64,000 nucleotides of DNA from an uncultured bacterium (GCA_963804975.1 CAWDSG010000002.1:208991-272990), one strand, 5' to 3'; shown: positions 848 through 44,638, counted from the stretch's first letter. Numbers and translations: made by a program. The notes: a model not told the origin generated them from the sequence alone.

Positions 848-958
848 GGCTCGCTCGGCAATGCGATTTTGAGGTACGCATAATTTCCTGCTGGAAATTT
901 GCTCGATACTCGCGCCGCCGCGCTCCGTAGCCCTCAAAATCACATCGCCTCGCTCGCT
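848..958. repeat. hairpin-embedded intergenic repeat, copy A (downstream of rpiB)
   Basis: ~25-bp imperfect inverted arms around a 75-nt core (attttgaggtacgcataatttcctgctggaaatttgctcgatactcgcgccgccgcgctccgtagccctcaaaat). Confidence 0.8.
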
Positions 959-995
959 AACGAAAATGCAAAAATTATTGTGGTATAATTAATTT

Positions 996-1715
996 ATGGC
1001 AGAAGTCATCCCAGCAATAATTCCCGAGTCGTTTGAGGATTTGAGAGAAAAAATGTCTCTTGTGAATGAGCTTGTTCCTGTTGTGCAGGTGGATGTTTGC
1101 GATGGCAAATTTGTCCCGTCAAAGTCCTGGCCTTTTGTAAACGATAAGGGCGATTTTGAGCAGCTCATCAGAGAATCCGAGGGTTTTCCTTTTTGGGAGA
1201 CATTGGATTTTGAAGCGGATTTGATGGTGGCGAATCCTGAAGACGGCATGGCGGAAGATTGGATAAAAGCCGGTGCCAAAAGAATAATTCTGCACGAAGA
1301 ATCATCCGATAAAATCTTGAAATTCGTAAAAAAACTGAGAAAAGAATACGGATATTTCGGCGATTCGGCGATAACGATGGAAATAGGAATCGGAATAAAT
1401 GTTGATACTCCAGATGAAGTTCTTGACGTATATTTGAAAACGGACGAGCTCGGCAGGTCGCTTGCGGATTTTGTGCAATTTATGGGAATCGACAAGATTG
1501 GCTATCAGGGGCAAAGTTTTGATGAAAGAGATTTTGAAAAAATAAGAAATTTGAGGGAAAAATATCCTGAAGCGATTATTTCTGTGGATGGCGGGGTAAA
1601 TCTTGAAAATGCGCCAGATTTGGTAGAAGCCGGAGTAAATCGTCTTGTTTCCGGCTCGGCAATTTATGAAAGCGAGAATATTGAAGAGGCGATAGAGGAG
1701 ATGAAAAATATATAA
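996..1715 (+). CDS. rpe: ribulose-phosphate 3-epimerase-like TIM-barrel protein
   Basis: VQVDVCDGKFVP resembles the Rpe HxDVMDGxFVP metal-binding motif; TATAAT ends about 5 nt before the ATG. Confidence 0.6.
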   Translation: MAEVIPAIIPESFEDLREKMSLVNELVPVVQVDVCDGKFVPSKSWPFVNDKGDFEQLIRESEGFPFWETLDFEADLMVANPEDGMAEDWIKAGAKRIILHEESSDKILKFVKKLRKEYGYFGDSAITMEIGIGINVDTPDEVLDVYLKTDELGRSLADFVQFMGIDKIGYQGQSFDERDFEKIRNLREKYPEAIISVDGGVNLENAPDLVEAGVNRLVSGSAIYESENIEEAIEEMKNI

Positions 1716-1724
1716 AATAAAAAA

Positions 1725-2165
1725 ATGAAAATATACGTTTTGGGAAGCAATAGTTTCGTTAATAAAATGGTTAATTGCAGAGACGAACTTTGCCGTTTGG
1801 GTTATGACGGATGTATTCATCCGGATTATGAAGATCATGTTAAGGGTAAAAAGAGAGCTTTTATTGAAAATTCCTTGCCTGGCGAAAGCGCTGATTTCAA
1901 ACGCGAGCATGATTATATAAGAAGCCATTACAAACATATATTGGAAAGCGACGCTGTTATTATAGTGAATCTGGAAAAGAAAGGCACTAAAAATTATATA
2001 GGTGGAAATTGTTTAATGGAAATGGGAATGGCTTACGTGAATAATAAAAAAATATTTCTTTTGAACGATATACCGGCAGACAGCACATATTTGGATGAAA
2101 TAAAAGCTATGGACCCGATTTGCCTGTATGGAGATCTGAGAAATATAAGCAAATATAAAAATTAA
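1725..2165 (+). CDS. nucleoside 2-deoxyribosyltransferase-like protein
   Basis: 146 aa; flavodoxin-like pattern 'IYVLGS ... GGNCLMEMGMAY' resembles the Nuc_deoxyrib_tr / YtoQ family. Confidence 0.4.
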   Translation: MKIYVLGSNSFVNKMVNCRDELCRLGYDGCIHPDYEDHVKGKKRAFIENSLPGESADFKREHDYIRSHYKHILESDAVIIVNLEKKGTKNYIGGNCLMEMGMAYVNNKKIFLLNDIPADSTYLDEIKAMDPICLYGDLRNISKYKN

Positions 2166-2168
2166 AAA

Positions 2169-2636
2169 ATGGCAAAAATATGCGATCATACAAGCGTCGG
2201 AATGTTTGTCTGGAAAGGAGATAAATTATTATTGATTGAAAGAAAGAAATTTCCTCCGGGGTTTGCCGTTCCAGCAGGCCATGTCGATGAAGATAAAAAT
2301 TTTGAACAAGCGGCAAAGCGCGAATTAAAAGAAGAAGTCGGTCTTGATGCAACAGAGCTGAAATTAATTGCTGAAGGAAGAAAGGAAAATAAATGTCGGC
2401 GTGAGGGCGGCAGTTGGCATTATTGGAAACTTTACAAAAGCGAGACAATAGGCGATATAAAAGGAAATACGGATGAGACAAAACAGGCAGAATGGTATAC
2501 GAAAGAACAAATCAGGAAATTAGCCGAAAAAACCGAGAAATACAGCAAAAAAGAAATTTCTGAGGAAGAATGGACTGAAAATCCAGGGCTTGAACCGGTA
2601 ATGTATGAATGGTTTAAAAAATTAGGTATAATTTAA
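2169..2636 (+). CDS. NUDIX hydrolase
   Basis: Canonical Nudix box AGHVDEDKNFEQAAKRELKEEVGL (Gx5Ex7REUxEExGU). Confidence 0.85.
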   Translation: MAKICDHTSVGMFVWKGDKLLLIERKKFPPGFAVPAGHVDEDKNFEQAAKRELKEEVGLDATELKLIAEGRKENKCRREGGSWHYWKLYKSETIGDIKGNTDETKQAEWYTKEQIRKLAEKTEKYSKKEISEEEWTENPGLEPVMYEWFKKLGII

Positions 2637-2638
2637 AT

Positions 2639-3508
2639 ATGAAAACTCTAAGACAATACATAAAAGAAGCGCAAGATAAAGGGATGGCAGTCGGGCATTT
2701 TAATATTTCAAACCTGGAGATGCTTCACGGCATTTTCAATGCGGCGAAAAAACTGAATCTGCCGGTCATTATCGGCACAGCGGAAGGCGAAAGGGAATTT
2801 ATCGGTGCAAAACAAGCTGTGGCGCTCGTGAAGAGTTTGCGGGAAGAATACAACTATCCGATATACCTAAATGGCGACCATACGCATTCGTTTGAAAGTT
2901 TCAAAAAATGCGTAGATGCCGGATATGATTCAGTCATTATTGACGGTTCTGCTATGCCGTTTGAAGAAAATATAAAAATGACGAAGCAATGCGTGGAATA
3001 CGCCCGAAAAGTCAATCCTGAAATCATCGTGGAAGGCGAAATAGGCTTTATCGGCACGTCGTCAAAAGTATTGGATAAATTGCCGGAAGGAGTGAAAATC
3101 ACCGAAGAATTTTTGACCAAGCCGGAAGAAGCAAAAAGATTTATAAAAGAAACCGGCGTTGATATGCTTGCTCCTGCCGTCGGAAATATCCATGGAATGC
3201 TTGCAAACGGCAAAGAACCGGCGCTTAATATCAAAGTTGTGGGCAATTTGCGAAAAGCAATCGGACAGACCCCGATGGTGCTTCACGGCGCTTCCGGAAA
3301 TACGAAAAAAGATATCCAGGCAGCTATAAAAGCGGGAATGAATATTGTCCATATCTCGACTGAAATCCGCGTGGCTTTCAGGAAAACTCTTGAAGATGAA
3401 TTGAAATCAAAACCGGATGAAGTCGCGCCTTATAAATATATGGACAATGATATCGTCGCAGTGGAAAAGCTCGTGGAAGAAAAAATGAAAATTTTTAATT
3501 TTATGTAA
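2639..3508 (+). CDS. fba: class II fructose-bisphosphate aldolase
   Basis: N-terminus 'AVGHFNISNLEMLHGIFNAA', 'YLNGDHTHSFE' and 'VLHGASG' are class II FBA / tagatose-bisphosphate aldolase signatures. Confidence 0.85.
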   Translation: MKTLRQYIKEAQDKGMAVGHFNISNLEMLHGIFNAAKKLNLPVIIGTAEGEREFIGAKQAVALVKSLREEYNYPIYLNGDHTHSFESFKKCVDAGYDSVIIDGSAMPFEENIKMTKQCVEYARKVNPEIIVEGEIGFIGTSSKVLDKLPEGVKITEEFLTKPEEAKRFIKETGVDMLAPAVGNIHGMLANGKEPALNIKVVGNLRKAIGQTPMVLHGASGNTKKDIQAAIKAGMNIVHISTEIRVAFRKTLEDELKSKPDEVAPYKYMDNDIVAVEKLVEEKMKIFNFM

Positions 3509-3533
3509 AGATTTATTTCTGAATAAAATAAAA

Positions 3534-3568: not shown

Positions 3569-3575
3569 GGTAACT

Positions 3576-4764: not shown

Positions 4765-4779
4765 CTCGCGAAAGACAGA

Positions 4780-4855
4780 ATTTTCAGAGCACGGATATTT
4801 TTTTGCTAAAAAATTCCTCGTGCTCGCGCCGACGCGCTCGCAAGTCTCTGAAAAT
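4780..4855. repeat. hairpin-embedded intergenic repeat, copy C (downstream of rplY)
   Basis: 10-bp arms attttcagag/ctctgaaaat; the core ...tttgctaaaaaattcctcgtgctcgcgccgacgcgctcgcaag shares ctcgcgccgacgcgctc with copies A and B. Confidence 0.7.
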
Positions 4856-4873
4856 CCTATCTTTCACTCGTTT

Positions 4874-6235
4874 ATGTATATATCTAAAAAAACAATAATT
4901 ATTTTTTCTGCGGTTTTTTTCTTGTTTTCAACGCGTGCTTTTGGGCAGGCATCTGCCAATCCTACAAACCTATCCGGCACTTATCAGGCGGCGCTTCAAG
5001 CAGAGTACAACCAGATAGAATCGGAAATAAAACAGCAGGAAAACATCCTTCAGGATCAACAGTCAAAATCCGATTCGCTTTCAAAAGAAATAGCCACGTT
5101 TGATGCGACAATCAAAGAGTATCAGCTTGAGATCAAGGAAAGGAATATTTCCATACAGGAATTGACAGACCAGATAAACCAGAAGCAAAGCACAATCAAT
5201 GATTTGTCCAGCCAATTTGATGCCGAGAACCAATCACTATCGGCAATTTTGAGAAAAACAAACGAACAGGATTCAAGCACTCTTGCGGAATTTGTCCTTT
5301 CCGGAGAAGATTTGGCTAAATTTTTCAGCGATATCAGCGATTTCAAATCAATAAAATCTGCATTGCAGGATTCTTTCAGCCAGATTACCGACACTAAAGC
5401 GAAAACAGCCGACGAAAAAACGGCGCTTGAAAACCAGAAAGACGACGAAACTTCTCTGCTGAACCTGCAAAAACTCCAGCAGCAAAGAATTCAGGAAGAA
5501 AAAAACCAGGAAAATCAAATTCTGAAAGCATCAAAAGGACTCGAAGCGAATTATGAAGAAATTCTCAAGGAAAAAGCCATGACTGCAACCGAAATACGCA
5601 ATCAGCTTTTCTCGCTTCAAGGTTCAACGGCAATACCTTTTGATAAAGCGGTAGAGTATGCGACTTTTGTCGGGCAAAAAATCGGCATTCGTCCGGCATT
5701 TCTTCTCGGAGTGATTTCGGAAGAATCAAATCTAGGTGAAAATGTCGGCAAAGGCAATTGGCTTATTGATATGAAAGCACCGAGAGATACCGAACCGTTT
5801 TTGGCTATCACGAAAAATCTGGGACTTGATCCCGATCAGCAGCAGGTTTCGAAAAAGGCGTGGTACGGATACGGCGGAGCAATGGGTCCTGCGCAGATTA
5901 TTCCGTCCACATGGGTGATTTACGGTGGATACAGCAAGGATTCAAACGGAGATTGGGTTTATAACGCATCGGATGACCAGATACGGCAGGCGCTCGGTGA
6001 AAATCATTCCTCAAATCCTTGGGACCCGACAGATGCATTCACTGCTTCAGCGATTATTTTGGAAGATGGAGGGGCTGGTCTTCAGACTCCAAAAACAGAA
6101 CGGCTTGCCGCTTTACGCTACTTTGCCGGACGGGCAAATGCAAAAAAAAGAGCATATGCTTTTTATGGCGACGATGTAATGGCGCTTGCGGCGAAATATC
6201 AGGAACAAATCAATATCATTTTGGCAGTAAAATAA
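4874..6235 (+). CDS. secreted coiled-coil protein with C-terminal lytic-transglycosylase-like (SLT) domain
   Basis: Signal peptide (MYISKKTIIIFSAVFFLFSTRAFG), ~250-aa coiled coil, then 'AFLLGVISEESNLG' resembling the SLT catalytic Glu-Ser motif. The track ORF (4616) begins with 86 aa that overlap rplY out of frame and is trimmed. Confidence 0.5.
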   Translation: MYISKKTIIIFSAVFFLFSTRAFGQASANPTNLSGTYQAALQAEYNQIESEIKQQENILQDQQSKSDSLSKEIATFDATIKEYQLEIKERNISIQELTDQINQKQSTINDLSSQFDAENQSLSAILRKTNEQDSSTLAEFVLSGEDLAKFFSDISDFKSIKSALQDSFSQITDTKAKTADEKTALENQKDDETSLLNLQKLQQQRIQEEKNQENQILKASKGLEANYEEILKEKAMTATEIRNQLFSLQGSTAIPFDKAVEYATFVGQKIGIRPAFLLGVISEESNLGENVGKGNWLIDMKAPRDTEPFLAITKNLGLDPDQQQVSKKAWYGYGGAMGPAQIIPSTWVIYGGYSKDSNGDWVYNASDDQIRQALGENHSSNPWDPTDAFTASAIILEDGGAGLQTPKTERLAALRYFAGRANAKKRAYAFYGDDVMALAAKYQEQINIILAVK

Positions 6236-6506: not shown

Positions 6507-6514
6507 CAATTTAC

Positions 6515-6611
6515 AAGACCATTCAATTTTGAGGTACGCATAATTTCCTGCTGGAAATTTGCTCGATACTCGCGCCGACGCGCTCCGTAGCCCTCAAAAT
6601 TGAATGGTCTT
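6515..6611. repeat. hairpin-embedded intergenic repeat, copy B (between rpmE and prfA)
   Basis: Perfect 20-bp arms (aagaccattcaattttgagg / cctcaaaattgaatggtctt) around the same 75-nt core as copy A, with 1 mismatch. Confidence 0.85.
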
Positions 6612-6633
6612 GTTTATTTTCAAAAACAATCAT

Positions 6634-17480: not shown

Positions 17481-19247
17481 CTATTTCCTATTTTCTTTTT
17501 CTTCTTTTATTTTTTTCAAAAAATCTTCAAGTTTCATCTGGCCGAGCGCTCCGCGGGCGCGCGATTCCACGGAAATCTTTTTCGCCTCAATATCTTTGTC
17601 GCCGATGATGATTGTGTAAGGAATTTTCATATTTTTTGCATCCCTGACTTTTCCGCCCATATTGCCTTCATTCGTATCGCAATCAACTCTGAAGCCGGCA
17701 TTTTTCAATTCCTTTGCAATTTTTTCCGCATGAGAATTGTGATTTTCCCTGACAGGCACAATTTTTATCTGAACGGGCGAAAGCCAAAGAGGAAAGTTGC
17801 CGGCATAGTGTTCTATGAGAAAGCCGACAAATCTTTCATGAGTTCCAAGCGGCGCTCTGTGGATGCAAAGCGGCGTTTCTTCTTTTCCTTCTTTATTTAT
17901 GTAGGTTAAGCCGAATCTTTTCGGCACCGCAAAATCCACCTGGTTTGTAGCGAGCGTGAATTCTCTGCCAATAGCGCTCCAAACCTGAACATCAATTTTC
18001 GGCCCATAAAATGCGGCTTCATTCGGTACTTCTATAAAAGGAATTTTTGAATCAACCAAAACTTTTCTGACCATTTTTTCCGTTTTCTCCCAAAGTTTCG
18101 GCTCGTTTACGAATTTTTCCCCGAGTTTTTTCGGGTTGTGAGTGGAAAATCTCATCACATATTTATCAATGCCGAATATCTTGAAATATTTCAAATACAT
18201 ATCGTTGACCGCTCTGAATTCATCCGCAAATTGTTCCTCAGCGCAATATATGTGAGCATCGTTCATGGAAAGCATCCTGACTCTCATAAGTCCGAAAAGC
18301 TCGCCAGATTTTTCATTCCTATAGCATGTTCCATATTCTGCAAGACGAATAGGCAAATCTTTATAGCTTCTTCTTTCACTGCCAAAAATTTTGTGATGAT
18401 GAGGGCAATTCATTGCCTTCAAGTAGTATTTCACGCCTTCAAGTTCCATTGGCGGATACATACTTTCGGCGTAATATGGCAAATGTCCGCTTGTGATATA
18501 CATTGATTCTTTTGCGATATGAGGAGTTCTGACTCTGACATATCCGCCATCACACTCGGTTTCTTTGGCCAGATTTTCCAGTTCATCAACTATTACCGTG
18601 CCGTTTGGAAGCCAAAGCGGAAGTCCTGGGCCGACATCTTCATCAAACATAAAGATTTTTAATTCTTTGCCAAGTTTTCTGTGGTCTCTTTTTTCCGCTT
18701 CTATCATTTGCTTTTCATAAACATCCAATTCTTCTTTTGTATTAAAAGCCAAACCGTAAATTCTGGTAAGCATTTTATTTTTCTCGTTTCCTTTCCAGTA
18801 TGCGCCGGCGATTCTTTCCAGTTTCCATGCGCTGTTTTTCAAATCGTCGATTTTTTCCACATGAGGTCCGGCGCAAAGATCCGTAAAATTTCCGGAAGTG
18901 TAAATCGTAATGACTTGTCCGTCTTTTGCATATTCTTTTATGAGTTCAAGCTTGTATGGATTTTCGGCAAAAAGTTTTTTTGCATCTTTTTCCGAAATTT
19001 CCGCTTTGTCAAAAGATTTCCACTTTTTCAAAAGTTCCCGCATTTTTTGTCCAATCCTTCCTAGATCCTTGTCGGTGATAGGTGTTGTAAAACCTGCCTG
19101 GCCGGTAGGCAGGTCAAAGTCATAATAAAAGCCGTTGTCTATCGCCGGGCCTGTGGCGATTTTCACGTCCGGATATAATTCCGTAACAGCCGCGCCAAGC
19201 AAATGGGCGAGGGAATGGCGTATTTTGAAAATCTTATTTTCATTCAT
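17481..19247 (-). CDS. thrS: threonine--tRNA ligase (lacks N-terminal TGS domain)
   Basis: 'FKIRHSLAHLLGAAV' zinc/editing-domain start; class II motifs in the catalytic core; C-terminal anticodon-binding domain. The start is ambiguous: TTG at 19274 or ATG at 19247. Carries the in-frame 23-nt element. Confidence 0.9.
   Translation of the reverse strand: MNENKIFKIRHSLAHLLGAAVTELYPDVKIATGPAIDNGFYYDFDLPTGQAGFTTPITDKDLGRIGQKMRELLKKWKSFDKAEISEKDAKKLFAENPYKLELIKEYAKDGQVITIYTSGNFTDLCAGPHVEKIDDLKNSAWKLERIAGAYWKGNEKNKMLTRIYGLAFNTKEELDVYEKQMIEAEKRDHRKLGKELKIFMFDEDVGPGLPLWLPNGTVIVDELENLAKETECDGGYVRVRTPHIAKESMYITSGHLPYYAESMYPPMELEGVKYYLKAMNCPHHHKIFGSERRSYKDLPIRLAEYGTCYRNEKSGELFGLMRVRMLSMNDAHIYCAEEQFADEFRAVNDMYLKYFKIFGIDKYVMRFSTHNPKKLGEKFVNEPKLWEKTEKMVRKVLVDSKIPFIEVPNEAAFYGPKIDVQVWSAIGREFTLATNQVDFAVPKRFGLTYINKEGKEETPLCIHRAPLGTHERFVGFLIEHYAGNFPLWLSPVQIKIVPVRENHNSHAEKIAKELKNAGFRVDCDTNEGNMGGKVRDAKNMKIPYTIIIGDKDIEAKKISVESRARGALGQMKLEDFLKKIKEEKENRK
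19093..19115 (-). repeat. in-frame palindromic 23-nt element (encodes DLPTGQAG) in thrS
   Basis: The plus strand reads cctgcctggccggtaggcaggtc; in gene sense this is gacctgcctaccggccaggcagg. Confidence 0.9.
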
Positions 19248-19650: not shown

Positions 19651-22600
19651 CTCCAGCACCTTCAACCTCTCAATAATCAAGCTTGTTTCTCCGTTTCGGT
19701 CGGAAATTTTGCAGACGGCGGCTATGCATTTATCCGTTTCAATCGCACTCCTGAATTGCTCATAGGTTCTCGGAAAAACCACTGCTTCAATCGAGCCGGT
19801 AAAATCGGCAATTTTTATGAAAGCCATCTGCTCGTTGTTTTTTGTCGTTATGACTCTCACATCTTCAATAATTCCGCCGATCGGCTTTCCGTTGTCGATC
19901 TCACTTCTTACATCTTTTGTTTCCTCTTTTATTTTTTTGATATTTATCGGCTGTTTTTCCAAAATCGTCCTGAATTTATCCAAAGGATGTCCGGAAATAT
20001 AAAGTCCGAGCAATTCTTTTTCCCAGGCGAGCCTGTCTTTCATGCTTGCAGCTTCTGCCGGTTCAAGGCGGAAATTTTCATAAACGCCGCCTGCCTGACT
20101 AGTAAGCAGGCCAGAAAAAACTCCGAAAAGCGAATCTTGATTTTGATTTTTATTGCCGACTTCTTTGTTGTATTTGAGCATATTTTCAATATTCGCCAGT
20201 AGCTGGCCTCTTTCTCCAAACCCTGCCTGGCCGGCAGGCAGGTCATCCATCGCGCCGGATTTTATGAGAGCTTCAAGCGAACGTTTATTCAGATTCTTGC
20301 TCACAATCCTTTCAAGGAAATCAGAAAGCGATTTGAATTTGCCCCTGTCCAATCTTTCTCTGATAATCGCTTTGGAAATATCTTCGCCGAAATTCTTGAT
20401 TGTCATAAGGCCGAAGCGGATTTTGTCCCTATTCGGTCCTGTGTCGTGCGGCGAGACCTCGGGAGTTTTTACCACGGTAAAATCGCTGTAGCTTTCGTTT
20501 ACTGACGGAGGCAGGACGGGAATGCCCATCTTTTTGCAGTCCGAAATAAATTCGCCGATTTTTTCCACATCGCCGGAATCGGCGGTGAGGACGGCAGACA
20601 TATAAATGGCAGGGAAATTCGCTTTCATATATGCTGTCTGATATGACACGCGCCCGTAGCTTGCCGCATGAGCTTTGTTGAAACCGTATCCCTGGAAAGG
20701 TTCAAACAAATTCCACAATTCCTCGGCTTTTTTTTGTGTCATCTTTCCGTGTTTTATGCATCCTTCCACGAATTTGATATGCTGCCTGATCATTTCTTCC
20801 GGAATTTTCTTGCCGACGGCTTTTCTGAATTTATCCACTTCGCCCCAAGTGTAGCTGGCAACCTCAATGGCCGTCATAAGCAAATCATCCTGATAAACCA
20901 AGACGCCGAATGTGGTATCCAAATAATCTTTCATTTCTGGATGTAGATATATTGCGGGTTTTTCGCCGTGCTTCCTAGCAATATACTCATAAATGTTGTT
21001 CATCGGGCCCGGACGGTAAAGCGCGACCATTACATTGATATCGTGTATATTTGTCGGCCTCAATTCTTTAAGCGCTTTGGTCATGCCTTGGCCGTTGAGC
21101 TGAAAGACCCCTACGGTTTCTCCGCGTGCAAGCATGGCAAAAGTTTTTTTGTCATCAAGCGGAATTTTTTCTATGTCTATATTTATGTTTTCAATTACTT
21201 TCACGCGATGTACGGCATCGGCAAGGACCGAAAGATTCCTGATCCCCAGAAAATCAAATTTCAAAAGTCCGACGCCGTCTTCTCCGACCGAATCCATATC
21301 GTATTGAGTGATGATTTTATTTCCTTCTTTCTGGTCGTATTGGAGAGGGACATAATTTATAAGCGGTTCCGGAGCTATCACAACTCCGGCGGCATGGACG
21401 CTGATGTGCCTTGCGCACCCTTCGATTTTTTTCGCCATATCCATAATTATTTTTGCATCTTTTTCCTTGTCATATATTTCTTTGAGCTCTGGAACAATTT
21501 CAAGCGCTTTATCTATTGTCATTGGTGAACCTTGAGCCCCAAAAGGTATGAATTTGGCGATTTTGTCGGCAAGCGGCAAAGGATAACCCATAGCGCGAGC
21601 CACATCCCGCACGGCTCCGCGTGCCATCATAGTGCCGAAAGTGCCGATCTGCGCCACATTGTCTTTGCCATATTTTTCCCGCACATAATCAATGACTTCA
21701 TCGCGCCTGTTGTCCGCAAGATCCATGTCGATATCCGGCGCCGAAGGCCTTTCGGGATTCAGAAATCTTTCAAAAGGAAGCTTGTATTCGATCGGGTTGA
21801 CTTTTGTGATGCCGGTAAGATAGGAAACCATGGAGCCGGCTACGGAACCTCTGGTATTTGAAAAAATATTATGCTCAGCCGCATATTTTAAAAGATCGGC
21901 CACAACCAAAAAATATTGAGAATATTTTTTATTCTTGATGACCTCAAGCTCATATTCAAGCCGCTCTATGACTTCTCTCGAATGATGCAGATCTCTTTTG
22001 TCTATTCCTTCGTAAGCGATCCTTTCAAGCTCTTCATCGTAGGAAAGCTCGCTTTCCACGACAAATTTCGGAAAAACCCACGCGGCTTTGCCGAGAACAA
22101 TTTCCAAATTGCACATATCGGCGATTTTTACCGAATTCCCGAGAGCATTCGGTTCATTTTTAAAATATTTTTCCGCCGTCTCTGCCGATATGAATGAAAA
22201 ATTGTCGGTATCCCCGTTTAAATCTCTGTCGGAAAAATCTGAATGCGAATTCACTTGCACAAGCGTATCTCGCGCCGCTTTATCCTCCGGTTTCAGATAA
22301 TAGACATCATGTGCAGCCACAAGCTCAGTATCGGTTTTTTCCGCCAATTTCTTGATTTTTTCTTTGAGCTCAAGCTGGCCTTCTATTTCGGGATGATGCG
22401 TTATTTCCAGAAAAAAATTGTCCTTGCCAAAAACTTTTTTGTACCAATCGACTATTTTTTCCGCTTTTTCACTATCGCCATTTTTTAAAGCAACGGAACT
22501 TTCTCCGGAAAAATGAGGCATAATGCAGACGAGTCCGTCTTTATATTTTTCCATGAGCTCCTTATCGATTCTTGGCTTGTAATAAAAACCTTCAAAAAAT

Positions 22601-25951: not shown

Positions 25952-25956
25952 GATTA

Positions 25957-26046
25957 AAAAGGGCGGCATAATAAAAATTTTCTTCTCGGAAAACTCGCTT
26001 CGCTCAGACAGTTCCTCGCAGAAAATTTTTATTATGCCGCCCTTTT
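25957..26046. repeat. hairpin-embedded intergenic element, copy E (downstream of rpmF), a divergent family member
   Basis: Perfect 25-bp arms aaaagggcggcataataaaaatttt/...; GC-rich core cttctcggaaaactcgcttcgctcagacagttcctcgcag. Confidence 0.5.
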
Positions 26047-26113
26047 CTTTTTACGCTTTCTGTTATAGGATACAATCAGCAGTTAAACAAGCCAAAAGTT
26101 ATAATTAAACATT

Positions 26114-28491: not shown

Positions 28492-30762
28492 ATGTACCTA
28501 AAAGGCATAGAAATTTCCGGTTTTAAATCATTTGGCAAGAAAAGTTCGCTTGATTTCAGCGCGCCTATTTCTGCGATAGTCGGCCCGAACGGCTCCGGCA
28601 AATCAAATGTAGCCGAAGCTTTTTCTTTTGTGCTTGGCGAGCAGTCCATAAAATCTCTGCGTGGGAAAAAGGCTGAAGATCTTATTTTTAACGGCGGAAA
28701 AGAGGCATCTCGTTCAAACCGCGCTTCCGTAAAGCTCATTCTTAACAATGTCCAAAGAATTCTCAATATAGATTTTGACGAAGTTGCCATTGAGCGCGTG
28801 GTCAATCGCGATTCCACAAGCGAATATATTATAAATGGAAGTCCGGTTCGTCTTAAAGATATCATTGAACTATTATCCGGTGCGCATATCGGAGCTTCAG
28901 GACATCAGATAATTTCCCAGGGCGAGGCGGACAAGGTTCTGAACTCAAATATCCGCGAAAGAAGAGACATGATAGAAGACGCTTTAGGCCTTAAAATTTT
29001 TCAATACAAAAAAGAAGAAAGCGAAAGGAAACTTGAAAAGACGGAAGAAAATATAAAACAAGTTGAATCACTCCGAAGAGAAATCGCTCCGCACATCCGT
29101 TTTCTAAAAAAACAGGTGGAGAAAATAGAGAAAACGTTTGAAATGAAAAACAATTTGACTTCCATGTATCACGAATATTTCAGACGCGAGGAAGAATATA
29201 TAAATTATGAGAAAAAAACGATTGCCGGAGAAAAAGAGCCGCTTTTAAAAACAAAAGAAAAACTCGAAAAAGATTTGGCGGCGGCTAGAGAAACTCTCAA
29301 CAAGTCATCCCTGAAAGACAAAAAAAGCGACGAAGTGATGAAGGTTGAAAGCAAGCTAAAGGATGCGAGATTTTCAAAAGATAATCTGACGAGGAGCATC
29401 GGCCGCATTGAAGGGGAAATTTCCTCGCTTCTTAAAATTCTGAAAAAACAAAACGAGGAAAGCGCAAGTGCCCAGAAAAAAACAGTGGAACTGTCACAGG
29501 TGGAAAATATCGCAAAACAGATAAATCTGGAAATAGACGATGCCTTGGAAAGCTCGGACATTTCAAAAATAAAAGAGATTTTCAAATCCATAAAAAATAT
29601 TTTGAAAGATTTTATTGAAAGGCACAAAGAAAGCGAGAGCAAGGAAGCGGCGAGCGAATTGGAAAATGAGATAAAAACGCTTGAAAGCGAGAAAAAGGGC
29701 TATGAAGTGAAAATAAATGAGGCAAACGAACTTGAAACCAAGCTTTTGGAGGAATATTCCTTTCTTAAAAACGAAATAGAAAAGGAAAAGGATTCCAATA
29801 GAGATGCGGAAAAGACAATGTTTCGGATAGTTGCCGAGCAAAATGATATTCGCGGAAAAATATCTGCACTTGAGAGCAGAGAGGCAAGATTGAGGCACGA
29901 CGAGGAAGAATTTCAGAGAGAACTTCAGGAAGGATCTGTTCTTATCGGCGTTTCGGCCTTGCATTATAAGGATTTCCTGCCTACCGGCCAGGCAGGTTGG
30001 CCTATAGAAGATCGTCAGGTGCAAGAAGACAGAAGGCGAGCGTTGGAAAAAATAAAAATCCGCCTTGAGGACGCGGGAATTTCCGGCAGCGATGAAGTCG
30101 TGAAAGAATACAAGGAAACTACAGAAAGAGACAGTTTTTTGGAGCGCGAGCTTGAAGACCTGATAAAGTCATCGCAATCACTGAAAGATCTGATAACGGA
30201 GCTTGGCGAAAAACTTACGACCGAATTCAAGAACGGCGTTGAAAAAATAAACAAGGAGTTCCAAAGATTTTTCATGGCGATGTTCGGCGGAGGCAACGCT
30301 TCGCTTTCTGTCGTAAAAGAAAAAAAGAAGAAAAAATCCGAAACGGAATTGCCGTCCACTTTAGCTGAAGATGAAAGTGAGGACCTTGAGGAAGAAGAGG
30401 AATTGGAAGAGGGGATTGATATTGAAGTTTCTCTGCCGAGGAAAAAAATAAAAGGGCTGATGATGCTCTCCGGAGGTGAGCGGGCGCTTACATCCATCGC
30501 TCTTCTTTTTGCGATTTCTGCAGTAAATCCGCCTCCGTTTATCGTGCTTGATGAGACGGATGCGGCGCTTGATGAGGCCAACTCAAAAAAATACGGCGAT
30601 ATGATTGCCGAGCTTTCAAAATATTCCCAGCTTATTCTCATTACCCACAACAGGGAAACAATGTCCCGCGCCGGAGTTATCTACGGCGTGACAATGGGTT
30701 CTGATGGCGTTTCGCGGCTCCTTTCAATCCAGTTTGAAGAAGCAGTGCAAGTAGCAAAATAG
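28492..30762 (+). CDS. smc: SMC-like chromosome segregation ATPase (short, reduced hinge)
   Basis: 'MYLKGIEISGFKSFG', Walker A GPNGSGKSN, long coiled coil, C-terminal signature 'LSGGERALTSIALLFA' and D-loop 'FIVLDETDAALD'; 756 aa versus ~1150 typical; the in-frame 23-nt element sits in the mid region. Confidence 0.7.
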   Translation: MYLKGIEISGFKSFGKKSSLDFSAPISAIVGPNGSGKSNVAEAFSFVLGEQSIKSLRGKKAEDLIFNGGKEASRSNRASVKLILNNVQRILNIDFDEVAIERVVNRDSTSEYIINGSPVRLKDIIELLSGAHIGASGHQIISQGEADKVLNSNIRERRDMIEDALGLKIFQYKKEESERKLEKTEENIKQVESLRREIAPHIRFLKKQVEKIEKTFEMKNNLTSMYHEYFRREEEYINYEKKTIAGEKEPLLKTKEKLEKDLAAARETLNKSSLKDKKSDEVMKVESKLKDARFSKDNLTRSIGRIEGEISSLLKILKKQNEESASAQKKTVELSQVENIAKQINLEIDDALESSDISKIKEIFKSIKNILKDFIERHKESESKEAASELENEIKTLESEKKGYEVKINEANELETKLLEEYSFLKNEIEKEKDSNRDAEKTMFRIVAEQNDIRGKISALESREARLRHDEEEFQRELQEGSVLIGVSALHYKDFLPTGQAGWPIEDRQVQEDRRRALEKIKIRLEDAGISGSDEVVKEYKETTERDSFLERELEDLIKSSQSLKDLITELGEKLTTEFKNGVEKINKEFQRFFMAMFGGGNASLSVVKEKKKKKSETELPSTLAEDESEDLEEEEELEEGIDIEVSLPRKKIKGLMMLSGGERALTSIALLFAISAVNPPPFIVLDETDAALDEANSKKYGDMIAELSKYSQLILITHNRETMSRAGVIYGVTMGSDGVSRLLSIQFEEAVQVAK
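29974..29996 (+). repeat. in-frame palindromic element (FLPTGQAG) in the smc-like gene
   Basis: ttcctgcctaccggccaggcagg. Confidence 0.9.
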
Positions 30763-31933: not shown

Positions 31934-33946
31934 CTATTCAACTACCTCATAATCCATCTGCTTTCTGTCTAGGTCTGCGCTGACAAGCTTGATTTTTACC
32001 TTTTGTCCTAGCGAAAAAGTTCTTTTTGTTTTTTCGCCGACAATGGCGTATTTTTTGGGATTGAAGACATAAAAATCGTCTCCGAGTGAAGAAAGCTTAA
32101 TCATTCCTTCGGCTCTGGTTTGCGTATCTTCCGCATATATGCCCCATTCGGTGACGCCGGTAATAAGTCCGTCAAAAATTTGCCCGACTTTATCCTGCAT
32201 AAATTCCACCTGCTTGTATTTTCTTGCGTCTCGCTCGGCTTCCGAAGCTTTTATTTCTTGGTCGGTGGAATGTTGGCAAGCTTTCTCATAAAAAGCCAGA
32301 TTTTTTTCCTGAACGGAATTTTTTGAAAGAATGTTTCCGAGAATTCTGTGCACCAAAAGGTCCGGATATCTTCTGATAGGCGAGGTGAAGTGCGCGTAAT
32401 ATTCAAACGCAAGTCCGAAATGGCCGATATTTTTTACCGAATAAATCGCTTTGGCCATTGAGCGCACTGCGGCAGTTTTTACCAAAGCTTCCTCCGCCTT
32501 TCCTTCCACTTGAGCGAAAAGCGCCTGCATATCCTTGCCGGTGATGCTTCCGTTTTTGCCGATGATAAGCTCATGCCCCAGTGCTTTTACAAACACCGAA
32601 AGTTCGGTGATCTTTTCTCTGTCCGGAAAATCGTGTATCCTGTACGGAATGGGGAAAAGTTTCCCGGATTTCTTTTCAAATTTATAAACAAACTCGGCGA
32701 CTTCTTTGTTTGCAAGAAGCATAAATTCCTCCACGAGTTTGTGGGTATCAAGCCATTCTTTTTTGTAAATTCTTATCGGTTTGCCGCTCTGGTCAAGCTC
32801 AAAAGCGATCTCTTCCTGCTCAAAATCAATCGCGCCTTTTTGCCATTTTTCTTTTCTCAATATTTTTGCAATTTTGTTTAGAGTATCCAGTTCCTCAAAG
32901 AATCGCCCGGATTTTTGATTGATAATTTCCTGCGCGCTTTCGTATGAAAATCTTTTATCCGATTTGATGACAGTTCTTCCGAACCATTTTGAATGCACTT
33001 TTGCCCACGCATCCATTTCAAATATCGCGGAAAATGTGAGTTTATCTTCATTTTCATTCAAACTGCAGAGATTGTCGGAAAGCTCAAAGGGAAGCATCGG
33101 TATTGTTCTGTCAGGCAAATACACCGAACATCCTCGATTGTAGGCCTCCTTATCAAGTTCACTTCTTTCTTTTACATAATAAGATACATCGGCAATATGA
33201 ATACCGATTTCAAAATTTCCATTTTGAAGTTTTTTGAAAGATATGGCGTCGTCAAAATCTTTTGCGTTTTTCGGGTCAATGGTAAAAGTGAGTGTGTTTC
33301 GCAAATCTTTTCTATTTGCAATTTCTTCTTTTGGAATATTTCTATTTTGTTCAAAAATTACTTTTGATTCTCTGGAAGCACTCTCGGGAAATTCAATATT
33401 AAAACCTTTATCAATGGCAATAGAATTCATTTCCGTGGAGTTTTCGCCCTTTTTTCCAAGAACGGCTATGATTTCTCCTTCGGCAAAATTTTGCATTGGA
33501 ACCCACTTCGTAATTTTTATTTTTACTTTATCTTCGTCTTTTGCACTGCCTATTTTTTCACGTGGAATTTTTACGGACATCTTTAATTTCTTGTCATCTG
33601 GCGCAAAAGCAATTCCTTTTCCTGCCTGGCCGGCAGGCAGGTCTGAAATTAAAACAGTGCCGACAAAATAACTTTTTGCTCTCTCTATAACTCTCACAAC
33701 TTCTCCGCCCGATAATCCGGATTTGCTTTTTCCGTAGATTTTTACTTCAACTTTGTCTCCGGACATCGCGGAGTTCAAATCTCTCGCGGATATTTCAGCC
33801 TCAACATCTCCTTTTTCAGCCAAAAAATAGGCGATATTGCCTCGTATGGATTTTATCGTGCCGATAAATATTTTACTTTTTCCATTTTGTCCGGATTTTT
33901 CGTGGAGATTTTTTCTATCTCTTCTGAATCTTTTATAGTTTTTCAT
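31934..33946 (-). CDS. rnr: ribonuclease R (RNB family 3'-5' exoribonuclease)
   Basis: N-terminal cold-shock/OB, RNB domain ('HIADVSYYV', 'YLPDRTIPMLP'), C-terminal S1; carries the in-frame 23-nt element near the N-terminus. Confidence 0.85.
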   Translation of the reverse strand: MKNYKRFRRDRKNLHEKSGQNGKSKIFIGTIKSIRGNIAYFLAEKGDVEAEISARDLNSAMSGDKVEVKIYGKSKSGLSGGEVVRVIERAKSYFVGTVLISDLPAGQAGKGIAFAPDDKKLKMSVKIPREKIGSAKDEDKVKIKITKWVPMQNFAEGEIIAVLGKKGENSTEMNSIAIDKGFNIEFPESASRESKVIFEQNRNIPKEEIANRKDLRNTLTFTIDPKNAKDFDDAISFKKLQNGNFEIGIHIADVSYYVKERSELDKEAYNRGCSVYLPDRTIPMLPFELSDNLCSLNENEDKLTFSAIFEMDAWAKVHSKWFGRTVIKSDKRFSYESAQEIINQKSGRFFEELDTLNKIAKILRKEKWQKGAIDFEQEEIAFELDQSGKPIRIYKKEWLDTHKLVEEFMLLANKEVAEFVYKFEKKSGKLFPIPYRIHDFPDREKITELSVFVKALGHELIIGKNGSITGKDMQALFAQVEGKAEEALVKTAAVRSMAKAIYSVKNIGHFGLAFEYYAHFTSPIRRYPDLLVHRILGNILSKNSVQEKNLAFYEKACQHSTDQEIKASEAERDARKYKQVEFMQDKVGQIFDGLITGVTEWGIYAEDTQTRAEGMIKLSSLGDDFYVFNPKKYAIVGEKTKRTFSLGQKVKIKLVSADLDRKQMDYEVVE
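33621..33643 (-). repeat. in-frame palindromic 23-nt element (DLPAGQAG) in rnr
   Basis: The plus strand reads cctgcctggccggcaggcaggtc. Confidence 0.9.
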
Positions 33947-34027: not shown

Positions 34028-34477
34028 ATGTTAATAATAAGATTACAAAGAAAAGGCAGAGTGCACGAACCGACTTTTCGCATAGTTGTCACCGATTCAA
34101 AATTCGGGGTAAAATCCGGCAAACCTGTCGAGGTTATCGGCTCTTATGATCCAAGAAAAGGAAAAGGCAATAACAGCGTAGATGGAGAAAGAGTGAAATA
34201 CTGGATATCAAAAGGAGCACAAGTTTCCGATACGGTATATAATTTTATGATAGACCAGAAAGTTCTTACAGGGAAAAAGATAAATGTACTTCCCAAGAAT
34301 AAAATAATAAACGCAAAGAAAGCCAAAGACCTGCCTACCGGCCAGGCAGGAGCGGAAGCGGCGGCAAAAGCTTCAAAACCGGATTTGACAAGCTCACCGC
34401 AAGAAAAGCCGGCAAAAGAAATGCCAGCTGCAGAAGCAAAAGTAGAACCGGCTCCAGAACCGGCCGTTGTTCAATAA
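34028..34477 (+). CDS. rpsP: 30S ribosomal protein S16 with C-terminal extension
   Basis: 'MLIIRLQRKGRVHEPTFRIVVTDSK' S16 N-terminus; A/K/E-rich tail hosting the in-frame 23-nt element. Confidence 0.85.
   Translation: MLIIRLQRKGRVHEPTFRIVVTDSKFGVKSGKPVEVIGSYDPRKGKGNNSVDGERVKYWISKGAQVSDTVYNFMIDQKVLTGKKINVLPKNKIINAKKAKDLPTGQAGAEAAAKASKPDLTSSPQEKPAKEMPAAEAKVEPAPEPAVVQ
34328..34350 (+). repeat. in-frame palindromic 23-nt element (DLPTGQAG) in the rpsP tail
   Basis: gacctgcctaccggccaggcagg. Confidence 0.9.
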
Positions 34478-34498
34478 ACCGGCTCACTCGGCAAATGT

Positions 34499-34590
34499 TT
34501 TGAAATGCACGAAAATTTAATGCTTTAAATTTTCTCTGTCCGTCGCCGTCGCTCCTCCCAAGGCATTTAAAAACATCCGCTTCGCTCGCC
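34499..34590. repeat. intergenic GC-rich element, copy F (downstream of rpsP), a divergent family member
   Basis: Arms tttgaaatgc/gcatttaaaa (1 mismatch); the core tctctgtccgtcgccgtcgctcc shares gccgtcgctc with copy D, and the following ccgcttcgctcgcc resembles copy E. Confidence 0.4.
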
Positions 34591-39538: not shown

Positions 39539-39559
39539 AAATTGTGTATAATAATGGAA

Positions 39560-42611: not shown

Positions 42612-42619
42612 AATTTTTT

Positions 42620-43153
42620 ATGACGCTCACTACTCACGCCATTGTCGGTGCAGCTATTACAAATCTCGTGCCGGCAAATCCGGAGCTTGGCTTTGCTTTG
42701 GCTTTTGCCAGCCATTATTTGTCGGATATAATACCTCACGCCGAACTTGTGCCGGAAGATTCAATAATTGAAAAATCAGAGGCCGGCAATTCGTTTGATA
42801 AAAATAATCTTAAATCGGTATTTCATGATGCAAAATCTTCATTCGGCTTTTTGCTTATCGGGCTTGATTTTATCATAGCGGTAATTTTATGCATGATTAT
42901 TTTTGCAAGAGACGAAAAAACTCTTTTTTTGACAATTCTCGGCATAATCGGCGGGTTATTGCCGGATTTCCTGCAATTTTTGTATTACAAAATCAGAAAA
43001 GGGCCGTTTATATTTTTCCAAAAGATCCATCATTTTTTCCATTCTTTGGGAGAACCTGTCCAGTCAGGAAATATGAAAGAAACTGCTTTTGCATATTTAT
43101 CGCCGATAATTCTGCCGGTATTATTTATTGCGATCTATTTTTTGGTTAAATAG
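42620..43153 (+). CDS. membrane-bound metal-dependent hydrolase-like protein (DUF457/YdjM-like)
   Basis: 'MTLTTHAIVGAAI' N-terminus typical of DUF457; several TM helices. Confidence 0.35.
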   Translation: MTLTTHAIVGAAITNLVPANPELGFALAFASHYLSDIIPHAELVPEDSIIEKSEAGNSFDKNNLKSVFHDAKSSFGFLLIGLDFIIAVILCMIIFARDEKTLFLTILGIIGGLLPDFLQFLYYKIRKGPFIFFQKIHHFFHSLGEPVQSGNMKETAFAYLSPIILPVLFIAIYFLVK

Positions 43154-43862
43154 ATAAAGATTCCAAAAAAGTTTTCAATTCTTCGCCTTCTATTTTTCTG
43201 AATTGCCCGGGTTTCAGATTGCCAAGGTGAATATTCATAACACGGATTCTTTTAAGCGATTCTATCGGCAGGGAAAAAGCATCGCACATTCTTCTTATCT
43301 GGTGTTTTTTGCCTTCGGAAAGAGTAATTGTAAAAACGCGTTCGTTTATATATTTTGTCTTGCAGGGTTTGGTGGAAATATCTCCTTCAAGATTCATTCC
43401 GCGTTCCATTACCCGAAGCTGATGCTGTTTTATCGACGTGCGGGTTTTCACCATGTATTCTTTGTCGTGGTCATATTCAGGATTTAAAAGTTTATCGGTA
43501 ATTCTTCCGTTGTTTGTGAGTAATATCAAACCTTCTGAATCTTTATCCAATCTGCCGATAGGGAACACGCCTTTGATATTGACCGCATCGGCGACATCTT
43601 TTTCGCCAATTTTCTGCTTGTTTGTTATCAGGCCTCTCGGCTTATAGTAAGCATAATAGGAAAAATCTTTCTTGATTTTATCTTTTACTTCCACTTTATC
43701 TTCTGCTTTGACTTTATCTCCAAGAACAGCTTTTCTACCACTAATAAAAACTTTGCCAGATTCAATCACTTTGTCGGCATTTCTTCTTGATAAGCTGTAC
43801 TTGTCGGCTAAATATTTATTTATTCTGATTTGCCCGTCTTTCATATCTGATGAATATACCAT
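43146..43862 (-). CDS. RsuA/RluB-family pseudouridine synthase
   Basis: S4 domain (RINKYLADKYSLSRRNADKVI) and catalytic 'IGRLDKDSEGLILLTNNG'. Confidence 0.8.
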   Translation of the reverse strand: MVYSSDMKDGQIRINKYLADKYSLSRRNADKVIESGKVFISGRKAVLGDKVKAEDKVEVKDKIKKDFSYYAYYKPRGLITNKQKIGEKDVADAVNIKGVFPIGRLDKDSEGLILLTNNGRITDKLLNPEYDHDKEYMVKTRTSIKQHQLRVMERGMNLEGDISTKPCKTKYINERVFTITLSEGKKHQIRRMCDAFSLPIESLKRIRVMNIHLGNLKPGQFRKIEGEELKTFLESLSI

Positions 43863-43891
43863 TAATGATAATAATTTAAAATTATGCTAAT

Positions 43892-44518
43892 ATGTTTCTC
43901 GTTATGCATGAAGTGTACGTCATCAATTCAATCGAGCAATTTTCCTACGTAGCCATATTTGCTTTTGCGCTTTTTGCCGGTTATCTTATTCCTGTTCCGG
44001 AAGAAATCATCCTGCTTATCAGCGGCTATATGGCCAGCGAATATTTCATACGGCTTACACCGGCTATTTTTATCGTAATCATCGCTTTTATAATCGGAGA
44101 CAACATTCTTTATCGCCTGACGCTTAAAAACAACAAACATGTGACAAAACTGATCCATGAGGTGCTATCTATGAAAATCATAACCAAAAACGAAGCGCTT
44201 CTTGAAAAACATATAAATACTACGATTTTTCTCACCAGATTTGTGCCGTTTTTGAGGTTCGTAGGCCCTGTTTTTGCCGGATATACGAAGACAAAAGAAA
44301 AGACATTTATGCTTTTTAATACGCTGGCAATCGTCATTTACGCGCCTTTTGTCATGTGGCTGGGATATTTTTTCCATAACGATTTTACTCTGATTGTAAA
44401 TGATATAGGCAGAGTGAGACACACCGCAGTTATTTTTGTCTGGATTATTATCGGCCTTATTATCACCAGAATTGTGGATTATTTATTTAAGAAAGATGAG
44501 GAAGCAAATGGGAAGTAG
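43892..44518 (+). CDS. DedA/VTT-family membrane protein
   Basis: 'LIPVPEEIILLISGY' DedA signature. Confidence 0.7.
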   Translation: MFLVMHEVYVINSIEQFSYVAIFAFALFAGYLIPVPEEIILLISGYMASEYFIRLTPAIFIVIIAFIIGDNILYRLTLKNNKHVTKLIHEVLSMKIITKNEALLEKHINTTIFLTRFVPFLRFVGPVFAGYTKTKEKTFMLFNTLAIVIYAPFVMWLGYFFHNDFTLIVNDIGRVRHTAVIFVWIIIGLIITRIVDYLFKKDEEANGK

Positions 44519-44524
44519 CGGTAC

Positions 44525-44638
44525 GCAAATGGCGAGGCGCTTCACCGAAAAAGCACGGATATTTTTCTGCTGAAAAATTCCTCGAGCTTGCGCCGTCGCT
44601 CTCGCTAGGCTTTTTCAATGAAGCGCCTCGCCATTTGC
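44525..44638. repeat. hairpin-embedded intergenic repeat, copy D (between convergent dedA and LOG genes)
   Basis: Perfect 20-bp arms gcaaatggcgaggcgcttca/tgaagcgcctcgccatttgc; the core gcacggatatttttctgctgaaaaattcctcgagcttgcgccgtcgctc is ~85% identical to the core of copy C. Confidence 0.75.

Follow-up and report, generated by a model that had tools for sequence, protein, structure and literature searches.

Apex-conserved hairpin elements in Patescibacteria: a putative family of small insertion elements and a second family of similar design

Introduction

Rickettsia palindromic elements (RPEs) are repeats that occur both between genes and in-frame inside them (PMC10969869). The present work concerns hairpin elements that resemble them in outline, found at six loci (A to F, Table 1) in a 64,000-nt stretch of DNA from an uncultured bacterium (GCA_963804975.1, CAWDSG010000002.1:208991-272990). 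This stretch, referred to as the window, is the only part of the source genome used, and coordinates are counted from its first letter. RPE copies are alike over their whole length. Other mobile elements prefer hairpins as targets, with the insertion sequences (IS) IS1397/ISKpn1 and some IS110-family members entering the loops of repetitive extragenic palindromic (REP) sequences and class C group II introns inserting after terminators. In the parvovirus adeno-associated virus (AAV), the inverted terminal repeat (ITR) is a T-shaped three-way hairpin whose GAGC-type stem repeats constitute the binding element of the HUH protein Rep. The ultra-small Patescibacteria, or candidate phyla radiation (CPR), have tiny, streamlined genomes that are thought to be poor in repetitive DNA. 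[quoted passage not shown] Small mobile hairpins, namely GC clusters, double-hairpin elements and repetitive hairpin-forming elements, are also described from the intergenic and coding DNA of compact mitochondrial genomes (PMC2800124).

An earlier note on the window had taken the six loci for a single family with a GC-rich core placed in the loops of pre-existing terminator hairpins. The analysis given here leads to a different picture, which we judge to be rather probable. In it, A, B, C, D and F belong to one family of ~85–115-nt non-coding, non-autonomous, RPE-like insertion elements found throughout Patescibacteria (the main family), E belongs to a second family of the same design present in many bacterial phyla, and the folded single strand is recognised by a putative enzyme. 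The family appears to be previously undescribed: searches of literature text for CPR repeats, palindromic elements and the core sequences gave no prior description, subscription journals being mostly outside reach.

Core structure and family membership

All six loci recognised in the earlier note are indeed present at the coordinates given there, each as an exceptionally long inverted repeat with a centre of ~55 nt. The four longest inverted repeats of the window are E, D, B and C, with A ranking twelfth, and the listing of inverted repeats gives an arm separation of 54–57 nt for A–D; the usual terminators of the window form short hairpins whose loops measure 1–14 nt, and those of relatives are short hairpins too. 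The pattern CTCGCGCCGACGCGCTC, with up to 3 mismatches allowed, occurs 5 times in the window against 0.08 expected, and four of these five occurrences fall in A–D. The near-identity reported for the cores of A and B is confirmed by a common 75-mer (866–940 and 6526–6600) with 1 difference (74/75), as is the likeness of C and D, which had been put at ~85% and amounts to 60 nt in common at 87%.

A covariance model, R1, was built from an alignment of 80 distinct copies, with A, B, C and D in the training set and F outside it. Within the window R1 finds C (99 bits), D (87), B (85), A (84) and F (48.7 bits, E=4e-12) and nothing further, while E scores 12 bits (E=0.5), on a par with plain terminators. 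The grouping of all six loci into one family therefore stands for A, B, C, D and F and falls for E, which belongs to another family.

On its G-rich strand, the minus strand of the window, the core is a three-way junction in which a long stem (P1) meets a GC hairpin (P2), GAGCGC-GNCG-GCGCGAG, whose tandem G·A pairs adjoin that stem, and an AU hairpin (P3) with the loop AGCA. Covariation analysis, which the earlier note had proposed as a check on the fold, gives this junction strong support. Over the 80 copies 90.4% of cells are paired, compared to 71.9% in shuffles and 33–55% with slid partners, and cells with double changes number 490 against 160 expected, a count reached in 0 of 500 shuffles. 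P3 is 99.4% paired with 7 of its 10 pairs compensatory, its closing pair being variously C-G, U-A, G-C or A-U, and the outer pair of P2 switches between U-A (40) and A-U (31).

The core is almost invariant among copies and the stem is different at every copy, measuring 14–59 bp (median 27) around the ~57-nt junction. Between orthologous copies the cores are 96–98% identical, a range inflated by the ascertainment of copies with a 26-base core pattern, the arms 53–79% and the flanking coding DNA 58–74%, with the arms changing through compensatory substitution. The layout of a conserved centre and variable arms, the reverse of the usual MITE and the feature stressed in the earlier note, is thus upheld.

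Comparison with Rfam 15 shows that three tRNAs alone pass the gathering threshold in the window and none of the loci does; permissive scans of C and A return merely generic microRNA-precursor hairpins, far under threshold. A hammerhead- or twister-like core was considered and rejected, inspection giving no match to CUGANGA...GAAA.

Arms and termini

The view that the arms are specific to each locus holds in part. Outer arms vary and the stem differs per copy, but the inner 10–12 bp of P1 are semi-conserved, with a U-tract...GAG pairing with CUC...A-tract, the outer arms of A and F are alike, and a subset of copies carries CTCGC-like ends. Of 113 copies, 14 have this motif in direct orientation at each of their outer ends, where 0.3 would be expected; its reverse complement is at background, and on the folding strand the motif yields a GC/GA/GC closing helix. 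In the same manner the ‘direct repeats’ CTCGCTCG that flank A and F form GC/GA/GC/GA helices on the minus strand. Full-length A consists of GC/GA closing-helix termini (GGCTCGCTCGGC ... GCCTCGCTCGC), a variable stem and the three-way-junction core, and F has the termini GGCTCACTCGGC ... GCTTCGCTCGCC. The arms of D, at 30 nt, are 93% complementary.

The general plan is a hairpin with a conserved apical module and a stem that is free to vary as long as it remains paired, full-length copies ending in a short GC/GA/GC helix. Element A is a mosaic, with core and inner stem as in B and outer arms as in F. Three copies of one metagenome-assembled genome (MAG; L017, L041 and L080) have the whole hairpin in common, including arms of ~30 bp, with different flanks. 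Inversion of the apex relative to the inner stem, of the flip/flop kind, was not seen among the copies.

Orthologous sites in relatives

Relatives syntenic with the window (PrfA 84–88% and SMC 78–80% identical) reveal gain, loss and replacement of copies at orthologous sites, and the expectation that the elements act as insertions is borne out, with site A empty in relatives and site B found in four states. In four relatives rpiB and rpe are only 1–2 nt apart (TAA-N-ATG) and there is no hairpin between them; A must therefore have been inserted, as ~148 nt, together with its arms. Between A and the rpe start (958–995) there are 34–38 extra nt containing TGGTATAAT, none of which occurs in the four relatives, and the insertion may have been accompanied by a putative new promoter, to judge from this extended -10-like motif. 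In this one filled/empty comparison the sequence around A reads TAA before the element and TAAC after it, followed by 34 more nt, as the possible trace of a target-site duplication.

Site B holds an orthologue of the window element, equal to it in the arms and with P2 decayed, in one relative (L119, 64 bits), another core subtype with different arms and GGCTCGC...GCTCGCC termini in a second (L121, 94 bits), a third kind of element with two AU hairpins in another (L120), and a plain terminator in L118, which has only CAAGACC/GGTCTTG in common with the window arms. At site C, L118 again has a plain terminator, sharing only AAAGAC (window AAAGAC/ATCTTT), and the other three relatives have a 10-nt spacer, but in a different gene order. 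Plain rpmF terminators (AAAGAGCGGCGCC-GTAG-GGCGCCGCTCTTTTCTTTT and similar) occupy site E in three relatives, their outer stem and T-tract being homologous to the outer stem of E; E proper is therefore a 68-nt hairpin seated seamlessly in the apex of an ancestral terminator. At site F relatives have plain terminators at the exact position, with a stem not shared by F. R1 finds no copy in 67 kb of L122–L124, which include sites E and F, and the 128 kb of relatives as a whole contain no main-family copy apart from site B.

As a side observation at site C, positions 4874–6235 between the L25 and L31 genes encode a 453-residue protein without a Pfam match. In three relatives the L25–L31 spacing is only 10 nt, and L118 has a homologue of the 453-residue protein there together with two pilin-like (N_methyl/Laminin_G_3) genes.

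These sites bear directly on the mechanism favoured in the earlier note, by which a ~75-nt core transposes into the loops of existing terminators or other hairpins and all arms are host sequence. Comparison of filled and empty sites does reveal a plain hairpin at E, where the element lies in the apex of the ancestral rpmF terminator, and weakly so at B and C, where the outermost ~6 bp are similar to the plain terminators of L118. One spot at site B holds different elements in different relatives, and the TsaD hotspot described below lies between native ERK and FS(F/L) codons whose DNA sequences are reverse complements (GAAAGAAAA / TTTTCTTTC). The mechanism fails at A, where four relatives have a 1–2-nt spacer without a hairpin and the arms came with the element, at F and the L121 copy, neither of which shares a stem with the terminator it replaced, and for the copies inside genes. 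Furthermore, inner arms and outer termini belong to the element and are conserved, the three copies of one MAG keep their ~30-bp arms in different flanks, and a T-tract follows only 16% of intergenic copies. Targeting of loops as the general origin of the elements is consequently considered quite unlikely.

Distribution and gene context

A scan of GTDB representative genomes with a degenerate core pattern returned at least 115 matches, a lower bound, and among the matches listed (>115) every one comes from a Patescibacteria MAG, with labels such as Paceibacteria, Nomurabacteria, Moranbacteria, Yonathbacteria and Vogelbacteria as well as ‘Saccharibacteria’-labelled assemblies. The DNA flanking these loci contains around 22 further, diverged copies (~1 per 33 kb), and the density is ~1 per 13–30 kb in the genomes sampled, with 5 per 64 kb in the window. 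Viral contigs of IMG/VR contain no main-family copy, and carriage by phages was rejected on this ground.

Gene contexts were read from open reading frame (ORF)-based gene calls in the fetched loci, those other than the window being seen with 8-kb flanks. Intergenic copies lie between genes in the orientations (+,+) 30 times, (-,+) 16, (+,-) 13 and (-,-) 11. The placement 3' of genes noted previously applies to all copies of the window but not to the family, which has mixed gene contexts and ~25% of its copies inside ORFs. A T-rich tract (at least 6 T in the next 10 nt) follows 13 of 79 intergenic copies (16%), with a background of 7.7%; the window loci with such a tract are B, D and E.

Clusters also occur, with two copies 75 nt apart in opposite orientation at L014:1220-1466, three within 2 kb at L100:4492-6582, and two in the same orientation 1.2 kb apart at L009:3276-4666, bracketing a gene-sized stretch. 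Further small hairpin families are present in CPR loci, consisting of a GA-flanked GC hairpin and a second hairpin with an AGCN or similar loop on other core sequences (L002:623-728, L058:893-993, L079:624-725, L107:2294-2402, L044:3762-3853, L088:4555-4674 and 5299-5398).

Copies inside genes

In addition to intergenic spacers and terminator apexes, copies are located in-frame in surface-tolerant linkers of essential proteins. ORFs run straight through 26 of 105 copies, in both orientations, with hosts that include TsaD, PheT (a copy orthologous in at least 5 genomes), UvrD/PcrA, ArgS, a GlmM-like phosphohexomutase, an IscS-like cysteine desulfurase, RsmE, MiaA and a DNA glycosylase. Two frames prevail, a sense one that reads HGYFSAEKFLVLAPSRSQ and an antisense one that reads LGSATARARGIFQQKNIR, and the inserts would add recurring peptides of ~20–35 residues, of the forms HGYFSAEKFLVLAPSR and LGSATARARGIFQQK.

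The linker of TsaD between YPGGP.IS.LAE and PRPM is an insertion hotspot. Across 120 homologues retrieved by a search with one TsaD (P0001–P0120), an insert of ~25 residues is present in ~85% of these CPR TsaDs, comprising several related core types in both orientations, and TsaDs 90–98% identical elsewhere differ in having the insert filled, empty or truncated. At DNA level one ‘empty’ allele contains core remnants and has its own small hairpin, so that deletion seems to leave short hairpins in place.

The pair P0001/P0003, in which the 3' arm shares GCAAGATTTTTCTTT with the ‘empty’ allele, had suggested that arms arise as inverted duplications of the target flank. This was rejected as a general origin because the ‘empty’ allele keeps core remnants, and is probably a deletion derivative, and because A has arms that bear no relation to its flanks. 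The idea of a rapid turnover, with independent insertions occurring repeatedly in TsaD, was also partly withdrawn, since several ‘different’ inserts look like diverged or frame-shifted forms of each other. Separate events are still needed for the opposite orientations and the empty forms at the linker.

Strand asymmetry and orientation

At all six loci the minus strand is the more stable one with RNA and DNA parameters alike. RNA folding gives -55.7 (minus) vs -43 (plus) kcal/mol for A, -49.3 vs -34.2 for C and -38.5 vs -25.3 for F, and DNA folding of A gives -28.9 vs -22.7. The shared orientation of the window copies is weak evidence within the window alone because most window genes are on the plus strand. 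In the arms of 113 copies there are 2859 Watson-Crick pairs, 131 A·C mismatches, which the folding strand presents as G·U or G·T, and 38 G·T, the A·C type exceeding the G·T type in 66 copies and the converse holding in 12. For in-gene copies the A·C:G·T ratio is 16:1 where the mRNA carries the non-folding strand and 22:5 in the opposite orientation, and for intergenic copies it is 29:14 with neighbours on + and 14:3 with neighbours on -. Since the bias is similar in every gene-orientation class, it is the G-rich strand of the element itself on which pairing is kept, irrespective of the strand that the host transcribes. Mutation bias and transcription were rejected as sources of the asymmetry for the same reason. 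Such a strand-specific fold argues against a role inside mRNAs and points to single-stranded DNA (ssDNA) or an element-specific transcript.

The strand bias weakens another idea of the earlier note, that of a structured RNA in terminators, since the favoured fold lies on the strand that is usually antisense to genes, whatever the gene orientation. More broadly, a cis function in transcripts, whether as terminator, 3'-end stabiliser, RNase III site or protein-binding 3' UTR element, would fit the position of all six window copies after genes, four of these for ribosomal proteins, the T-tracts after B, D and E, the strong covariation and the preference for (+,+) over (-,-) contexts (30 to 11). 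In the window, however, the fold is antisense to the upstream gene, and the bias reaches 16:1 even where the mRNA carries the other strand. With 16 copies between divergent genes, a quarter of copies inside ORFs in both orientations, copies missing at orthologous sites of relatives and T-tracts after only 16%, a cis-acting RNA is a very unlikely explanation.

An element-specific transcript could also be the basis of a retro element, whose folding-strand transcript a reverse transcriptase would recognise by the three-way junction and turn back into DNA. RNA structures typically contain G·U-type wobbles and tandem G·A helices, and the energy gaps between strands are larger with RNA than with DNA parameters, but tandem G·A pairs and G·T wobbles are stable in DNA too. 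No conserved promoter is apparent, nor is there room for one in the in-gene copies, no reverse transcriptase gene was seen beside any copy, and there is no poly-A or other hallmark of retroposition. Retroposition is the explanation to which we give the least credence.

Orientation is biased as well. The non-folding strand lies on the G-rich strand of the locus in 81 of 111 copies (81 vs 30), and in 48 vs 15 where |skew| > 0.05 (p=4e-5), a bias that is inseparable from gene orientation.

The E family

E represents the second family, which is defined by its apical 19-mer, AAACTCGCTTCGCTCAGAC. This occurs in more than 120 metagenome contigs (L125–L244, a lower bound) of 27–71% GC from gut, marine and soil samples, and among the matches listed it tops a locus-specific long hairpin in every contig. 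The median aligned arm of these hairpins is 45 nt, and the wobble asymmetry, 137 vs 68 overall and 48 vs 15 by locus, has the same direction as that of the main family. Read on the folding strand, the apex is GUCUGAGCGAAGCGAGUUU, in which tandem G·A pairs clamp GCGAAGC, a design as in P2 of the main family. A review describes GCGAAGC as a DNA mini-hairpin of unusual stability that occurs at primase and ssDNA initiation sites (PMC13037366).

E-type loci match no Rfam family. One contig match adjoins the small RNAs FopS of Bacteroidetes, and a shared neighbouring gene, considered as a possible common factor, was rejected, none being found at the E-type loci. The apex, at 28–31 nt, is found again in 130 megaplasmid records of Ralstonia, which have it at as many as 10 places each. 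In p56D2 of Ralstonia wenshanensis (L245:1140-1290 and 1690-1850), two inverted E-type hairpins flank tandem gttcagaacctcaaag repeats in the unannotated region between glgX and glgB.

The E-type apex is pertinent to a further explanation, namely a DNA signal of benefit to the host, whose folded or duplex core (with GAGC-type motifs) would be bound by a conserved cellular protein, such as a priming, replication, recombination or DNA-uptake factor, and spread by gene conversion rather than transposition. The near-invariance of the core across distant lineages, the correlation of orientation with local GC skew and a strand-specific fold independent of transcription all accord with such a signal, as do the presence of GCGAAGC and the identity of the apex in contigs that span 27–71% GC. 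Copies are dispensable, however, being missing at the same sites in close relatives, and their density is low and uneven, with 5 copies over the 64 kb of the window and, site B apart, not one over the 128 kb of relatives. Insertion into essential proteins is hard to square with a positional signal and no binding protein is known. A host signal is therefore held to be improbable.

Features of the window

The features of the window are collected in Table 1. Neighbours of the loci identified with Pfam are rpiB/rpe (A), L31 (B), L25 (C), DedA(VTT)/LOG (D), L32 (E) and S16/KH (F).

Table 1. Elements and associated features of the window, with strand and supporting scores (CM, covariance model R1; I2–I4, inverted repeats of the window listing)
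Feature	Position	Strand	Details
Element A, full length	848..957	minus	CM 859-944, 84.4 bits, E=6e-23; core at about 875-931
TGGTATAAT, extended -10-like motif	981..989	plus	Read from sequence; upstream of rpe start codon (996)
Element C, commonest core subtype, after L25	4763..4872	minus	CM 4774-4858, 99.2 bits, E=2e-27; I4
Element B, core subtype as A, between L31 and prfA	6508..6618	minus	CM 6519-6604, 85.1 bits; I3
Ancestral rpmF terminator stem, left half, enclosing E	25956..25967	plus	Homologous to L122-L124 terminator stems
Element E proper, second family	25968..26035	minus	Own arms ATAATAAAAATTTTCT / AGAAAATTTTTATTAT; apex 25991-26009
Ancestral rpmF terminator stem, right half, and T-tract	26036..26052	plus	GCCGCCCTTTTCTTTTT matches GCCGCTCTTTTCTTTT and similar in relatives
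Element F, diverged member, after S16	34481..34590	minus	CM 34492-34576, 48.7 bits, E=4e-12
Element D, subtype as C, between convergent DedA-like and LOG genes	44525..44638	minus	CM 44538-44622, 86.8 bits; I2

A second, tiny hairpin insert, (GA)CCTGCCTACCGGCCAGGCAGG, is present inside eight large ORFs of the window, corresponding to a ThrRS-like protein, DnaE (twice), SMC, RNase R, the C-terminus of S16 and UvrB-like and UvrA-like proteins. The positions are 19093-19113(-), 20222-20242(-), 20086-20113(-, diverged), 29976-29996(+), 33621-33641(-), 34330-34350(+), 49635-49655(+) and 55404-55424(+). It lies on the sense strand in every case, reads (D)LPTGQAG where the frame was checked, and is not in the orthologous genes of relatives within the 128 kb examined.

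Interpretation

On the reading preferred here, that of small non-autonomous insertion elements, the apical module would be the place where a putative trans-acting enzyme recognises the element, acting on it in the form of a folded single strand, more probably of DNA than of RNA. Cores may also be copied between resident hairpins by gene conversion or template switching, which would give rise to mosaics such as A. Terminator-embedded copies such as E would persist because insertion at the apex spares the terminator stem and T-tract.

Several points weigh against this account. A clear target-site duplication is lacking, the possible TAA at site A being the sole candidate, and no autonomous partner (transposase, reverse transcriptase or other) was identified in a search that was very limited and at no point genome-wide. 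The conservation of the core across distant lineages is very high, which is unusual for selfish DNA and could reflect a host function, even if the identities are overstated by the mode of ascertainment given above. The bias in orientation is contrary to the lagging-template prediction for IS200/IS605 elements. Moreover, the in-gene copies are presumed to be translated on the strength of their open frames, and the main and E families appear to be related by a shared design rather than by alignment.

A bolder extension would regard both families as one ancient, bacteria-wide class of apex-conserved hairpins. The G·A-clamped GC mini-hairpin on one DNA strand would be the substrate of an ssDNA transaction, which might be insertion into the apexes of hairpins or cruciforms or else a templated exchange of apexes, writing inserts of 60–110 nt into terminators and essential proteins. 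We regard this unification as doubtful, though conceivable. If true, it would make such a class a major source of variation in protein length and linkers in Patescibacteria.

Structured inserts that span the superphylum, even in essential enzymes, affect gene calling, protein-family alignments and structure prediction in Patescibacteria. The near-invariant three-way-junction apex, the covarying stems and the strand-specific fold together provide a defined substrate with which to find the moving or copying enzyme, and the elements can serve as insertion/deletion markers among close relatives. The occurrence of E-type apexes in very different bacteria, in multiple copies on Ralstonia megaplasmids, implies that the inverted-MITE design is not confined to the CPR.

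Comparison with known systems

The described systems share individual features with the main family to differing degrees. Intrinsic terminators have a short GC-rich stem, a small loop and a direct T/U tract, a combination that the family does not show. Integron attC sites have RYYYAAC / GTTRRRY ends and a variable centre, whereas the present elements have CTCGC-type direct-repeat ends, a conserved centre and ribosomal or housekeeping hosts rather than cassettes. The mitochondrial hairpin elements are organellar, have unrelated sequences and are not known to possess a conserved three-way-junction apex. The AAV ITR resembles the main family in its long stem with two small internal hairpins and in GAGC-type stem repeats, and offers a lead only: sequence homology, a Rep gene and a flip/flop apex are absent, and the setting is a bacterial chromosome.

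Elements that target hairpins share an insertion preference for existing hairpins with E, and possibly with B, C and the TsaD linker. Those IS elements and introns are autonomous and protein-coding, whereas here the inserted unit is itself a hairpin of ~70–110 nt and a hairpin target is not obligatory, as site A demonstrates. MITEs such as Correia, ERIC and BOX/RUP/SPRITE are, like the main family, non-autonomous, multi-copy and able to form stable stem-loops. They are bounded by conserved, IS-derived terminal inverted repeats, plus target-site duplications; in place of such inverted repeats the main family has CTCGC...CTCGC, a short repeat in direct orientation from which one strand makes a G·A helix, outer arms that differ per copy so that no terminal inverted repeat is common to all, and no known parent IS.

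REP sequences and REPINs, which are served by the RAYT group of IS200/IS605-type Y1 HUH transposases, are likewise intergenic hairpins often found at gene ends, and recognition as folded ssDNA of one strand, in the REP/REPIN manner, would explain the strand asymmetry of the main family. In REP/REPIN the stem is conserved and the loop varies, the converse of the arrangement here, and the main family also occurs inside genes and, measured against GC skew, is oriented in the reverse of the way that the IS608 model has it. Neither a GTAG-type motif nor a RAYT gene was seen with the main family, RAYT genes not having been looked for genome-wide.

The closest counterpart is found in the RPEs. The main family differs from them in that only the ~57-nt apex, inner stem and short termini are conserved while the stem differs per copy, in its superphylum-wide rather than genus-level range and in its strand-specific wobble bias, and the likeness is one of description. 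Yet both consist of small (~100–150 bp) hairpin repeats without a transposase, in reduced genomes, inserted in-frame in unrelated housekeeping genes to which they add a conserved peptide (PMC10969869), and the palindromic repeat that is intergenic as well as in-frame within genes, by which RPEs are recognised, is equally a property of the main family.

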